59,210 bases of DNA, filler included, from Sphacelaria rigidula (GCA_964200075.2; 10 parts of 10 records of this genome joined end to end with filler, not necessarily neighbours in it), one strand, 5' to 3'; shown: positions 5,932-51,139, counted from the whole stretch's first letter. Notes: a model not told the origin generated them from the letters alone. Numbers and translations: made by a program.

Positions 5932-6004
5932 CTCCGTCTCGAAAGGGATGCGTGGTCAATGGTCAAACGACTAAGGCAAGCAACAAATTAGTACGCCCCC
6001 CCCC
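5932..6004 (+). mobile_element. 3' end of oligo(C)-junction LINE, subfamily A
   Basis: CTCCGTCTCGAAAGGGATGCGTGGTCAATGGTCAAACGACTAAGGCAAGCAACAAATTAGTACG followed by C9. Confidence 0.85.
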
Positions 6005-6586
6005 AAAAAAAAAAAGAAGAAAAAAGGGCCTGGTTTGCGGAGGCAATTTTTTCAGGTAAATCGAAATGGGAAAAGCCAAGCACAACGAGCAGCTAGGAAT
6101 TCCTACGCTTGGGTTCGTTCTCGCTAATGTTGCCCTTATGAGGCGCTTCATGCAGCCTGAACCCAGACATCAGGCGCTGTATGACCAATTTCTTCGTGAC
6201 ACTTTTGGGCTGGTACTGGGGGGAGGTTATCGTGGGAAGTGTCCAAGCAGAATATAGTGGAAATGTCGAGTGGTGATAACGTATATCGAAAAAATGTCTC
6301 CACGCTTTTGATTTTAGATTTTTGCCCCGAAGAGGGATGGGGTGGAATTGGGCATCCTTCGAACCCGAGTAAGTAACCTACGTGCCAGACGTTAACATAC
6401 CTCTAATGCTAAGATGTCGCAAGCTGTTACCGGCCTCGTGCTAGTGACCAGGGGGTGTAAACAGTTTTGAGGGGTTTTCAAGAGTCGACCGCGAGTCAGA
6501 GAAATCGGGCTGACGTGACTTTTGAAGAAGAAACAAGAAACTTGTGGAGTTGCGTGGAGACCATCCCACACTCTCATGGAAAATTG

Positions 6587-6789
6587 CAAGGGCAGGTCGA
6601 GTAGAGTACACTCCATTGCGGGGTGTTTTGAAAGTCGTACTTCAAATGCTCAAATTGGGGTGGTCTTTAGAAGTCGTACCCAAAAAATAACTGGGAAGCG
6701 ACCCTTGACACCCTACCCCAATTCATGTACTTGAAGTACGACGTTCAAAATACCCCGCAATTGAGTATATTATACTCGACCTGCCCTTG
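6587..6789. mobile_element. MITE with long TIRs (CAAGGGCAGGTCGAGTA...)
   Basis: About 60-bp inverted arms CAAGGGCAGGTCGAGTAGAGTACACTCCATTGCGGGGT / ACCCCGCAATTGAGTATATTATACTCGACCTGCCCTTG; flanks GAAAATTG / GAAGATTA (6/8 match). Confidence 0.8.
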
Positions 6790-7439
6790 GAAGATTAAGC
6801 TTGAGCAGAGGAGGTTTCGCCTAGTGAATGCCTCCTTGCACTTAATCACTTGTGCGGTTGATACACCCGCCTGCAAAGGTGTTGAGCACGCTGTTTACAA
6901 GCCTTTGAGCGGCCAAAGTGCGCCTGCTACCTAGTGAATCGCCATCATTTGCGCTTGATGAATGAGTGTCAGCCATAGCTGTTATTCGCAGGCGAGCAAA
7001 GGGTCAGTCAATCTGCTTCTCTACTAATGCGGTAGATTTTCGTCTTGGTGTCTTTGGCCGAAAGCAGGGGGTGGGACGGGGGAAGCTTTAAGGTACCGGT
7101 TTTGAGAGATGATATCATCCCTTGGACAGTAACCAATTTTCGATTTTTCGGTAACTTCAGCAAGAATATCTGCTTGACTTGAAAAGTGAAATTCACTAGT
7201 AGTGGTAGTAGTGGTAGTACTAGTAGTACTAGTAGTAACAACAAAAGCAACAAAAGTTGTAACCATCACCACTATTCATTGTTAATTTGTAAGTTTAAAT
7301 CATTGATATTACATATATAATAGCAGTAACAATACCGTACAGCATTTACAATAATACACAATAATGCACAACAATGCACAATGATATTTATTCATTTCAT
7401 CTCTGGTGTTACCGTTTCTTGTTTTGGAATACAACGCAG

Positions 7440-7615
7440 GGGCCGAGATCCGCCAATCTACGAGGGTCTGAAGTTGTAAAAGACGAAACGGAGGCTATCG
7501 CTAAAAAGTTAGCAGTTGCCGACAAGAAGAAAAAGTCGGCCGCCAAACTAATGAACGGATTGTGGTGGAAAGAATTCCTCGAATCTGATCTTGGCAACAA
7601 TTGGTTTGATCAATG
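7440..7615 (+). CDS. Possible internal exon, unknown product
   Basis: CAG| acceptor and |GTGAGT donor around an open frame GPRSANLRGSEVVKDETEAIAKKL...WWKEFLESDLGNNWFDQW; no family recognised. Confidence 0.35.
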
Positions 7616-7714
7616 GTGAGTGACGAGGGGAGTGCGTCAAGCTGCAAAAACAATGTCGACTTTTTTGGGTGTTGGCAAAAAATGTGTGCCTTGACCTTAG
7701 GTGAAACCTACGCC

Positions 7715-47517: not shown

Positions 47518-47767
47518 GACTAATGCCGAGATAGCCCCCCTACAAAAAGTGCACCGAAGACCGTCCGGCAAACCGGCTGCGATTCCACTGTTGGGCTTGT
47601 TTACAGCAACTTCGCCCACATGAGAGGCGTGTAGCGAGGGCGAAATCAGCTTCGACGCCCAAATGAGTCGCGTCGGGCAGCAAGAAACCAGCTCTAACGG
47701 CATTTATGAGTATCGCCCCCGTGCACTTTTTTGGCCGGTTTGGGGGCGGGCTATCTCGGCAGCAGTC
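47518..47767. mobile_element. MITE with G..C ends and 4-bp TSD TAAA
   Basis: GACTAATGCCGAGATAGCCC...AAAAAGTGCAC / GTGCACTTTTT...GGGCTATCTCGGCAGCAGTC; TAAA at 47514-47517 and 47768-47771. Confidence 0.75.
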
Positions 47768-48430
47768 TAAACTGAACAGAAACAACAGCAAGACAACACC
47801 GAAAAAGGAAGGAAATAAAAATCGAAAAACGGAAGGCAAACCAAAACAAACCAAAGCTAGGGAAAGAAGAAGGAAAAGTGAAGAGCAAGAAAACCAGTCT
47901 TGATGAAGACAAGAATGAATGATGATGACCTAATGGAAAAAACGACGATGGCAATCACGCTGTCGACACCTCCCAACGTGGCACCACGTGAACGGTATGT
48001 GATGTGGAGGTTCTTGGAGAACGAAACACTCGTATGATTCATATTCCATAGCACATGAACTCGCGGCACCCTACCCTGAAACATGACTTTAGGTATGAAA
48101 GCCGTCCGTGCGAAAACAAAGGCTGGTGGCCACCAGTAGGGAAACAAATGGTAAAAGAGGGTTAAATTCCGAACCCGGCACAGTGCGGTACTTCGTACAG
48201 GAACATTATCGCAGTTTTGATTGGCACATAGTCACCCCGCTTGCCCTTATCGCTCTCTCAGCGAACCGATGTTTTGGCTACTGTAAGGTCAACAGCTCCA
48301 ATCCATTAAAAAGCGGCAACCATTCACTCTGAGGGCGAGCCGTAGGAACAGGCTTGGAAAGGGGGCTCTGTAACTTTGATATTTCAACCTCTCTGCAGGA
48401 CGAGGGGTACGTAAGAGCTCAAATCAATTC

Positions 48431-48569
48431 CATACCCTGGACAGCAGATGACGGTTGTAGAAAAATGTACCGCGTACGGTATAGAATATGTTGTCTATTG
48501 CCAAAGACCCAATAGTCGATACTGCACGCAATATACTTTTTGATAATGTGATCCATTGTCCCGGGGGCG
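48431..48569. mobile_element. Foldback MITE with perfect 8-bp TSD
   Basis: ATCAATTC at 48423-48430 and 48570-48577; ends CATACCCTGGAC / GTCCCGGGGGCG. Confidence 0.85.
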
Positions 48570-49694
48570 ATCAATTCCACCCCCCTTGCGGAGGGGAATT
48601 TTTTACCTTTTGAGCACCTGAACGTTGCCAACAGAACATTATATCCGAAATACAAAAAACAGTCGTGCGTTGCACGCGAATCACTGGACTCTCCAGCTTT
48701 GCTCCCTGCAGTACTGACTGTAGATACAAGACAAGCAGTGTACATAATTCGTGCTCAGACTTCTCCGACCGGCGGTCATTTATTTTTCCGGAATCGATGG
48801 GGTTGATAATTCCTCTCCGCGATTTCAGACAAATCATAATGTCGTGTCCCACCTGTGCACATTGATCAACCTCTCGCTGCCCTCGAAACCGGGACGTCAG
48901 ACGCCGAACAGTGTCAAGCACTGCATCAACTGTACCCTACAGTGGGACGAAAACCTGGAAGAGTTGGGCGTCTTCATCTCCACCACGTCTGTGGGCTGGT
49001 TGCGGGGGTGCTGTACAGCGGAGAGAGTTTTGCGGCGCATTTCGTGCCAAGAGCTTCTAGAGTAGAGAACATTCGACAGGATGATATTCGCTGGACTTCC
49101 GCCTCGTCGAAAAAAATATCACGTTCAAGGGTATTGCTGTCGTTCTCGCCTTCATGGGAGCATCTCTACGGGGTCTACAAATATGATTTTGGAGGGAGTT
49201 TTGATTCAGGGTTTTACTGTGAATGAGTTCTCATGCGTTTCAAAGTTTTCCGTGTTGCATTACCCCGAAATACGGGGTAACTCTCGGAATCACGGGAGAT
49301 AGTTGGCCGAGACTAGCTCTGCTGGGAAGCTTTGGTTGCTTGTGACAATTGTCTCCGCATACGTACGCTGGATGATGACAGAAGAGGTGGGCGTAGGAAC
49401 CGTGGCTTCCGAAACTTCAACAGTGTCAGTTTTTATTTCTTGGAGGTAAAGTGTCGAATGTAAAGAGAAAACGAACCGCCACGGAGGTTGTGGTGCAGCA
49501 ACACATTCCATTGTTGGGTACAGTAACTCGTTAGCCAGGGCCAAAACAATCGACGGGGAGAATACTTGCTGGGCACACCCTGGTGTCTGGTTACATATAT
49601 TTCTGCTGCATATTTACTTCCTATGATGACGGCATTTTTGGAGCGCCGCGAACACAAAGATGTTGTAGCTTGACTTATTCGACCCGGCGTAATT

Positions 49695-49830
49695 GGGGGT
49701 GTACTCATGATCTTGCATGCCGTAGTCATAACACCATTGACCTCGCATCCCTACAAAAACGAGACGGAGCATGCCGGGCTTTCGCTGGACCAGGCTCGCA
49801 CTCAGTCACCAAGCAAGAAGCGCCGTGATG
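49695..49830 (-). mobile_element. LINE 3' end, subfamily B (further fragments at about 50210-50260 and 50296-50360)
   Basis: GGGGG-TGTACTCATGATCTTGCATGCCGTAGTCATAACACCATTGACCTCGCATCCCTAC... Confidence 0.8.
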
Positions 49831-51139
49831 TGTTCGGCGAGTCGAATGAAGGGTGAGCCGCATCCTGCCAAGATTGTTCGACCCGAAGCGTACTGATTAT
49901 CTTGCATTTGGATGACATCCTCCAATAAGTTGCTTCGTTTTCTGGTGTTGCCACTTCCAGAGGCAGCCACGGCTTACACACTGCCTCAGGGTTTGTCTCA
50001 CCATTTACGCACTACGTAGTGCGATCATCCCCATTGTGCGGAGTTCATGTTCCCCCACCCCACACAAAATGACCTAGCTCGACCACCATCATGGTTGACA
50101 ATAAAAACGCAAGCGCGCGAAAAAAATGATAACCTGGTTGTCTAGCCTACGCATTGAGTGGCGTGTTTTACAGCGTCATTTCCAACCGATGCCAACCTCA
50201 TGGGGGATCTGTCCCTACAAAGCCGGGGCGGAGCACGCCGGGTTCTCGCCGGACCAGACTAAGTTTCGAGGGGGGAAGAGAAGAATAGGAGCAGGAGGGA
50301 CGTGGTCATTTGTTGATTGCCTTAGCCGTTTGACTATCGACCTCATATCCTTACAAAGCGGGGGTGGAATACTCGAGCTATGCTACGGTAGGGGTTGCAC
50401 TTTTTTAGCGAGAACGTTTCTCGGGGCTGCTCGGGGTGTTGGATGGGTCATTTTGAGAACCGGAATCATTTTTACTTGAAAAAGACTGAAAATAATGCCG
50501 ATTCACGAAAAGATCCCTACGTGCAAACATTTTTTTTGGGAGTCCAGTCCCCGGAAATTTGGGTTGTAGAGTAATCTCCATATATTTGGACTCCAACAAA
50601 AAAGAGACCCAGACACAAACAGTGCAACCCGTTCCGTCACGACGTTTTCAAGCACCAAGCAGGAGGCCTCATTCATCCAGTTTTTTTTTTTGTCGCCCCT
50701 TGCACTCCTTCCCTTACTCTGGACTAGTCGACGGCCTCAAGGAATCAACCCATATCTCCCCCGGTACACGCCTTACATTTTGGCCTCGCAGATTGGGTCA
50801 GCACTCCCGCACCGCGTCATCTTTCGCCAAACAAAGTCAGACAATTAATTTTCTCAATCCATCTTCTTACCCTATCAATGGTGGAATTCAGATACTTCGA
50901 AGAACAAACCCAACGCATCTGGTTGGAAGTAAACCCCGTCCTCTCCACCCTAACGGTATCGGTCGGACCATAATACTATCGAGGCGCGTCAGCTGGTTTT
51001 GGCAACCCGAATCTTCGGCAGAGTTATGGTGACCTGCTGCTCTCCACTCTTTCACACTCTTCTCCTCACCTGTTTTGGCCCCCTCGTTGGTTGAACAATG
51101 GTGTTGTGTCGTGGCTTGTTGTCTATAATCATGTTCCAG

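Follow-up and report, generated by a model that had tools for sequence, protein, structure and literature searches.

Junctions of a brown algal LINE family with C/G homopolymers in Sphacelaria rigidula

A stretch of DNA from the brown alga Sphacelaria rigidula (GCA_964200075.2) raises the question of why a short repeat ends again and again at a run of C's, and whether that run belongs to the element or to the site that received it. The stretch, hereafter the window, comprises 59,210 nucleotides and consists of ten contigs of 5831 bp with N/TTAATTAATTAA spacers between them; the repeat was found many-fold when the contigs were compared with themselves by BLAST, several copies being located at contig starts or ends. 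A sequence-only reading of the window had assigned these copies to a retrotransposon without long terminal repeats (non-LTR) that appeared to insert at G/C homopolymers. The observation was confirmed as real and strongly non-random, and the target-site part of its interpretation is well supported. The reading put forward here, with a probability of about 75%, is that a very abundant long interspersed nuclear element (LINE) of the RTE group and a relative, termed B-type, integrate at C/G homopolymers through target-primed reverse transcription.

The copies were defined by their 3′ ends. A pattern of 46 nt taken from the A-type 3′ end matched the window four times with up to 3 mismatches, against no match in 100 shuffles, and a fuzzy scan with the last 22–23 nt of the two variants returned 15 matches. 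Those at 3233 and 17915 were excluded (5 mismatches, without flanking homology), and three 3′ ends were added, those of a stub of 18 bp at 10373, of an old long copy at 45714 and of a diverged, B-like copy at 52600, giving a final set of 16 3′ ends of the LINE family in the window, 10 of A-type and 6 of B-type. The 3′ end of subfamily A reads ...AATGAGTACG / ...CTCCGTCTCGAAAGGGATGCGTGGTCAATGGTCAAAYGACTAAGGCAAGCAACAAATGAGTACG and that of subfamily B ...ATCATGAGTACA / ...GGCATGCATGATCATGAGTACA, with a core of CTCCGTCYCG...GGGATGCGWGGTCAATGGT common to both. All 15 coordinates given by the sequence-only reading match real copy boundaries; the single family that it described holds in that the copies are related, but their 3′ ends split into two subfamilies, and they are spread over seven contigs, not six, with an extra fragment at 35603–35638.

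A run of at least five C's was found right after the terminus at 12 of the 16 3′ ends (13 when an offset of one base is tolerated), compared with 0.30% of the 200,000 random strand-positions of the window that served as control for the junction counts (binomial p about 1e-27), which bears out the earlier statement that copies end directly in a C-run or C-rich tract. The four exceptions, at 13475 (a T, then C6), 44150, 50301 and 17625, are all older or diverged copies, and their 3′ flanks are still C-rich, with 5–9 C's among the first 12 nt (control mean 3.0). The most frequent length of the 3′ run is 5–6 C's (7 of 16 ends). Beyond the C-tract the sequence is unlike at every locus in the window, an A-rich tract after C9 being present only at 5995. 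A fixed internal C-run followed by another tail, the arrangement that the sequence-only reading had held up against itself, is ruled out because the sequences past the tract are unrelated between copies, both in the window and in hundreds of contigs from the public sequencing runs treated below. On the other side of the element, at least five C's were found within 30 nt upstream, on the element strand, at all nine recognisable 5′ ends (control 3.2%, p about 3e-14).

Two insertions have clean target-site duplications (TSDs). The first flanks a short A-type copy of about 65 bp (23466–23530, + strand); the target C11 run and the 5′ TSD copy (CCCCCCTCAACAAACG, 23440–23455) occupy 23435–23455 (+), the 3′ copy lies at 23531–23546, and the duplication, CCCCCCTCAAC[A/G]AACG (23440 / 23531), is identical at 15 of 16 positions. 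The second flanks a short A-type copy at 45627–45691 (−) and reads CCCCCCTCCCAGGTTATG in the element sense, its 5′ copy (45690–45707) and 3′ copy (45609–45626, −) agreeing at 18 of 18 positions. Both duplications, correctly described in the sequence-only reading, start within the C-run and extend into duplicated unique sequence; the C-run therefore predates the insertion and is not a tail or junction artefact. Together with the 5′ flanks, this upholds the claim of a pre-existing C/G-run as the target. Two further flank pairs (copies at 44086 and 10304) have the appearance of degraded C-rich TSDs. In the four insertions with two flanks, that is, the two clean and the two degraded pairs, the 5′ and 3′ C-runs measure 11 v 6, 12 v 6, 5 v 2 and 7 v 5. 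The longer upstream run places the bottom-strand nick inside the G-run, the distance to the end of the run being 5–6 nt for the two clean TSDs, and all four pairs of lengths could be explained by nick position alone, without an added tail.

Some copies are nested. The short copy at 45627–45691 lies within the C12 tract (45702–45713) behind an older long A-type copy (45714–46597, −; aa 1061–1360 of the full-length relative P0006, 38% identity). An A-type stub of 18 bp (10356–10373, +; C8 behind) is located just after the C-tract (C5TCC) of a 36-bp B-type copy (10304–10339, +), which has C7 in its 5′ flank (10297–10303) and a degenerate, C-rich TSD. The short copy at 23466 was inserted in the C-run just upstream of an older 5′-truncated LINE fragment (23546–23624, +; aa 1174–1198, 76% identity), which begins immediately after the TSD of that copy.

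The nature of the element was determined from its relatives. With the 89-aa C-terminus of copies found in metagenomes, 127 proteins were obtained at E ≤ 0.001 among 150 candidates, two of them near-full-length, P0006 (1360 aa) and P0077 (1328 aa). P0006 carries an Exo_endo_phos domain (aa 170–414), an RVT_1 domain (aa 740–989) and a CPCGKAKESRTHIVGEC knuckle, and P0077 has the same domains, endonuclease (EN) as well as reverse transcriptase (RT). RVT_1 was matched in P0006, P0077 and P0001 with E values of 1e-30 to 2e-32, three proteins that have 87–96% in common with the C-terminal 89 aa of the window family; Exo_endo_phos, an AP-type endonuclease N-terminal to the RT, was matched with values of 3e-12 to 8e-15. 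Full-length relatives consist of a single open reading frame (ORF) of about 1360–1382 aa with EN, RT and a CCHC knuckle, whose stop lies 5 nt before the terminus. Only post-RT parts of it are contained in the window (P0006 aa 1061–1360 at 46597–45716; aa 1203–1356 at 13013–13455), and from these alignments the window's long copies are old, degraded 3′ parts of this ORF. The zinc knuckle ascribed to the long copies is accordingly degenerate in the window, but it is intact in the full-length relatives. No Pfam family was matched at E ≤ 0.1 by 10 frame pieces of the window's old copies, and the Protein Atlas returned generic EN/RT clusters only, which hold no clade or taxon information. Copies ranging from 18 bp to at least 880 bp with one common 3′ end, and TSDs of 16 and 18 bp, are the truncation and duplication pattern of a LINE, and the RT domain preceded by an AP-type endonuclease in the full-length relatives identifies an APE-type non-LTR retrotransposon, the general class that had been proposed.

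Among named relatives, those that come closest belong to brown algae (Ectocarpus, Sphacelaria). Over the RT region, P0006 and an Ectocarpus protein show 66% identity, and both carry the terminal ...NAPSxRGxVVNGxTAK peptide; similarity of the RT to human L1 ORF2p is as remote as that to R2 (E about 1e-20). Elements of the RTE group have a single EN-RT ORF, a very short 3′ untranslated region (UTR) and a simple-repeat tail, and the same layout was found here, with one ORF of 1360–1382 aa, a stop 5 nt from the terminus and (C)n behind. As judged from protein and layout, the family is most likely an RTE-group LINE of a brown alga, of the RTE-X type. The motif (C/R)VVNG, a few residues before the C-terminus, is kept in relatives with 44–51% RT identity (P0129, P0146), and its persistence suggests a double constraint on the terminal nucleotides, which are coding sequence and 3′ end at once. 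A conserved region before the endonuclease (VLVVLVFGVPSDMTRIEFKRKCDEVGLYCFA...) was also noticed at aa 1–100 of P0006 and P0077, with no Pfam match at E ≤ 0.1.

The genus Ectocarpus also provides the closest described counterparts. In a 2025 paper on its transposable elements (TEs), the dominant LINEs, the most abundant TEs of that genome, are assigned to RTE-X (PMC12477816), and in part 1 of the three parts of its table all families with an EN-RT ORF and (C)n belong to RTE-X. There, RTEX-1_Ec32 is described as 'single EN-RT ORF; (C)n 3'' with a 'C-rich' TSD, and RTEX-2_Ec32 as having '(C)n termini/TSD' (PMC12477816, supplementary file 1). Best hits given in that table include the animal RTE-X elements RTEX-4_NV and RTEX-1_BF. 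The likeness to these entries of the table lies in the single EN-RT ORF, the (C)n 3′ end and the C-rich TSD, and was established by table description and protein, not by consensus alignment; the differences are those of species and family, the Ectocarpus protein, with its 66% RT identity, not being near-identical. In the main text of that paper, as far as it was available, the word 'C-rich' is absent, and the feature is not discussed in the passages on RTE-X and target sites (PMC12477816). The combination of a (C)n tail with C-rich TSDs, supposed in the sequence-only reading to be new, is therefore already on record in the Ectocarpus TE library for RTEX-1 and RTEX-2, in a supplementary table only, and the Sphacelaria family joins elements of that kind.

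Junctions beyond the window were studied in Logan contigs of the runs X1, X3 and X4 (DNA-like) and X5 (whose kind is a guess), aligned to contig 8 at 90% likeness or more; the summed depths of these alignments are not copy numbers and were not used as such. Loose ends marking the 3′ junction of the 45627 copy were collected at places 45617 and 45621, with 380 and 239 contigs in X1, 223 and 280 in X3, 347 and 255 in X4, and 36 and 56 in X5, respectively. Their consensus is G on the + strand (C in the element sense) for about 7–23 positions and then breaks down, the overall agreement being 0.39–0.46. On the 5′ side, at place 45681, the loose-end consensus is LINE for 15 nt, followed by more LINE sequence (X4) or by G-rich sequence corresponding to a C-run upstream (X1, X5). 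Joints from 44085, the first base of a short copy, to 45621, the end of a C-run, were found in 25, 15, 20 and 1 contigs of X1, X3, X4 and X5, respectively, and a joint that goes back 61 in 10, 3, 5 and 0 contigs; both kinds are head-to-tail short copies with nothing but a C-run between them.

Copies were also found in other collections. A 19-nt pattern matched 14 loci in metagenomes, of which 3 were true copies (L002, L005 and L006) and 11 chance matches; the true copies have an open frame to a TGA 5 nt before the terminus, with C8, C11GC5 and C10 behind, respectively. A collection of prokaryote genomes yielded one contig, binned into a bacterial metagenome-assembled genome (MAG), with an intact copy (L021), whose frame comprises 1382 codons and whose terminus, identical to that of the others, is followed by C13; it is the one true copy in this MAG, the other 4 of 5 matches being due to chance (E > 0.2). 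No common word of at least 8 nt was detected between its 3′ flank and the first 1300 nt, where a TSD was sought, and its 5′ end, not found within the contig, is probably located beyond it. The open frame of L021 extends 49 codons upstream beyond its first ATG, and at about 440–520 in the element orientation, upstream of the ORF, lies an inverted fragment whose LINE 3′ end is of a third kind (reading ...GGTCAATGGCAAGGCATTTGTTTCATGAGTTCA in its own sense), without a C-run behind. IMG/VR contained neither a DNA match nor a protein relative.

A sequence of events that fits this anatomy can be proposed. Integration would occur by target-primed reverse transcription at a C/G homopolymer, the endonuclease nicking the bottom strand inside the G-run and typically leaving 5–6 G's as primer. 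A plausible next step is pairing of these G's with 3′-terminal C's of the element's RNA, which would have been copied from the C-run downstream of the donor, since polyadenylation cannot supply C's. Since only 5 nt separate the stop of the ORF from the terminus, the last ~65 nt are coding sequence and would also be the site recognised by the RT. Reverse transcription would usually halt after 20–70 nt, often at one spot. A nick inside the G-run, with priming there, would lead to a TSD that begins with C's and to a C-run on both sides of every insertion; the flanking C-runs would then offer targets to the next insertion, giving rise to nested and head-to-tail clusters.

Several points weigh against this reading. 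The C-ended RNA template is an inference. At three termini (44150, 50301 and 17625) a run of at least five C's is wholly missing, and in the four insertions with two flanks no net C-tail was added, the 3′ run being the shorter one. The 5′ boundaries were placed where homology is lost, and three of the nine adjoin a C-run directly, which makes the count of nine out of nine not fully blind; next to half of the window's C/G runs of at least 9 nt (10 of 20) no element was recognised. Several of the joints in the public runs have sides shorter than 30 nt at 90% likeness, and repeats can produce joints with sides this short when likeness is below 95%; here, however, it is the repeats themselves that are of interest. 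Membership of RTE-X has the Ectocarpus annotation and similarity at the protein level as its basis, rather than a phylogeny that includes reference RTs.

Among the alternatives, the one that survives best concerns the short copies. The sequence-only reading had described variable 5′ truncation, but truncation is not freely variable, since TGCTYCGTCTCG is the starting point of all three short A-type copies whose 5′ end is visible, and the joints to 44085 recur (25, 15, 20 and 1 contigs). The A unit corresponds to the last ~65 nt of the LINE, and its fixed 5′ boundary means either that the RT tends to stop there or that the ~65-nt unit became a template of its own. The ~65-bp units might accordingly be an ultra-short, discrete element that is non-autonomous and is mobilised in trans by way of the common 3′ end, like RTEX-N1/N2_Ec32, non-autonomous families listed for Ectocarpus that have only the 3′ 60–100 bp in common with the LINE, with the remark 'can be present in tandem' (PMC12477816), although the Sphacelaria unit is much shorter than RTEX-N2 as listed (188 bp). 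This explanation is regarded as rather unlikely: the unit has no head of its own (no tRNA-like gene in the window by ARAGORN; no Rfam match on contig 8 at E ≤ 1; a z-score of 0.15, nothing unusual, for a 165-nt fold of the 3′ end), other 5′ ends exist (the 18-bp stub, a fragment beginning TCTCGAAAGGG and an CGGTGCTCC class in X5), and a hotspot of RT arrest accounts for the same data. The Rfam and folding results likewise leave a ribozyme or structured RNA behind the fixed boundary without support, and with the ARAGORN and Rfam results neither the A unit nor the B-type copies showed the Pol III-type head of a short interspersed nuclear element (SINE), whether of tRNA, 5S, 7SL or snRNA type. 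The B-type copies are non-coding and partly tandem, and look like a non-autonomous relative with only its 3′ end in common with the LINE.

The second alternative retains the target and dispenses with the pairing: the endonuclease would nick in G-runs, the RNA would end in ...GTACG without C's, and the C's at the junction would be nothing but duplicated target. Such a course agrees with the shorter 3′ run in the four two-flank insertions (6 v 11, 6 v 12, 2 v 5, 5 v 7) and with the modal 3′ run of 5–6 C's (7 of 16), but in hundreds of contigs that cross 3′ junctions the consensus remains C for at least 16 positions past the first 6–10, and the C8–C13 behind the external copies are long for a TSD share alone, even if slippage of the homopolymer after insertion could also have lengthened them. 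Long C-tracts, found at most genomic junctions, speak for a tail or slippage having contributed to some extent, and integration by the endonuclease without pairing is considered improbable. The third alternative, in which (C)n is merely the element's own simple-repeat tail, like the (CAA)n of RTE, without any target preference and with 5′ C-runs that result from clustering, gains something from the several 5′ C-runs that are tails or flanks of older copies (45702–45713; 10340–10344; 23435, upstream of an older fragment), but it is very improbable given at least five C's in 9 of 9 5′ flanks against 3.2% in the control, and given that in both clean TSDs the C's belong to the duplicated target and precede duplicated unique sequence, which a tail cannot yield on the 5′ side.

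Integration by target-primed reverse transcription at C/G homopolymers can be compared with that of mammalian L1, which nicks at TTTT/AA, pairs its poly(A) with the nicked strand and leaves TSDs that start with A's. The two have in common an APE-type endonuclease with an RT, heavy 5′ truncation, variable TSDs, a homopolymer that forms the 3′ junction and also opens the TSD, and new insertions within older copies' tails. They differ in that the homopolymer here is C, not A, and does not come from polyadenylation, and in that there is a single ORF, whose stop lies 5 nt short of the end, without ORF1 or a 3′ UTR, the RT being distantly similar to ORF2p. Membership of the L1 clade was rejected, no A-run being found directly behind any of the 16 termini and the ORF being single. 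Waldo, Mino, Kibi, Koshi and Dong belong to other clades (R1, Tx1 and R4). These APE-type LINEs target microsatellites, namely ACAY (Waldo), AC (Mino), TC (Kibi), TTC (Koshi) and TAA (Dong), and resemble the present family in that a simple repeat is both 3′ tail and target; the difference is that the target here is a mononucleotide C/G run, which does not figure in the 2013 catalogue as far as it was available (PMC3812793). A literature search for C-homopolymer tails of retrotransposons gave nothing else of relevance, the spelling 'poly(C)' with parentheses not being covered. As far as the literature searched goes, a full description of junctions, empty sites and RNA ends for such elements is still missing.

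The choice of target by LINEs is usually explained from L1, with its AT-rich nick and poly(A) pairing. A LINE with a C/G-homopolymer tail that does not derive from polyadenylation therefore tests the shares of endonuclease and primer–template pairing in that choice. The window also has an excess of long runs: 20 C/G runs of at least 9 nt were counted in 58 kb (8 C-runs and 12 G-runs; about 0.3 expected from base composition), together with 3 A-runs and 7 T-runs of that length, the longest C/G run being G21 at 41332–41352, and 10 of the 20 adjoin LINE copies. Each insertion would need a G-run as primer and would leave C-runs at both ends, so that the family would make its own targets; such a self-reinforcing homopolymer niche of brown algal RTE-X elements is proposed tentatively, its chances being put slightly below even. 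If it exists, it would explain the excess of long C/G homopolymers in the genome and tens of thousands of ~65-bp retro-copies, and it would be a natural C:G mirror of the A:T priming of L1, in which endonuclease specificity could be separated by experiment from primer–template pairing. The family may also be a limit to assembly, since copies are cut by the starts or ends of several contigs.

The remaining copies in the window were as follows. The first, of A-type, is cut by a contig start (5932–5995, +) and is followed by C9 (5996–6004) and then the A-rich tract mentioned above. An old long A-type copy (12779–13475, +) corresponds to aa ~1203–1356 of the full-length protein, with a degenerate knuckle; its flanks are C9TTC5 on the 5′ side and T then C6 on the 3′ side. 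Contig ends are reached by a B-type 3′ end at 17625–17693 (−; 3′ flank CCTCCACCCCC) and an A-type 3′ end at 29520–29555 (−; C10 behind), and contig starts by a B-type 3′ end at 23725–23762 (+; C12 behind) and an A-type 3′ end at 41518–41571 (+; C5TC7AC5 behind). The fragment at 35603–35638 (−) is the one beginning TCTCGAAAGGG; C13GGC5 lies immediately upstream of it and C6 behind. Another short A-type copy, at 44086–44150 (+), has C5 10 nt upstream, a 3′ flank of CCTCTCC and a degraded TSD. A non-coding B-type element composed of two partial tandem units (47034–47255, −) has C14 immediately upstream (47256–47269) and C5TC6 behind, and a B-type copy of at least 100 bp whose 5′ end is not defined (49700–49830, −) has C5 behind. 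The region 50180–50359 (−) comprises an old A-like copy (50301–50359, with C5 immediately upstream), a C-rich tract and a B-like fragment (50180–50240), and a diverged B-like end (...ATGATCATGTGAGTGAG) at 52570–52613 (+) is followed by C13.

Other repeats were noticed in the window. A second, very abundant one occurs at 18263–18640 (−), 33357–33720 (−) and 46560–46953 (+), and in part at 41962–42075; in its own sense it has a tRNA-like head, GGCTCAGTTGGTAACCTCGAAACC...GGGTTCGAATC, at one end and a (CA)n-like ACACACAC at the other, and these features make it resemble a SINE derived from a tRNA, with (CA)n as its tail. ARAGORN did not call it as a tRNA. In the available part of the Ectocarpus table, a (CA)n 3′ end is given for CRE LINEs (PMC12477816). 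A 771-codon open frame at 53380–56634 (+) encodes an integrase of the Ty3/Gypsy type (Integrase_H2C2, rve) with a long C-terminal extension. A self-inverted repeat of ~110 bp, found on three contigs (3498–3607, 33073–33179, 34711–34809 and 7713–7821), looks like a miniature inverted-repeat transposable element (MITE).

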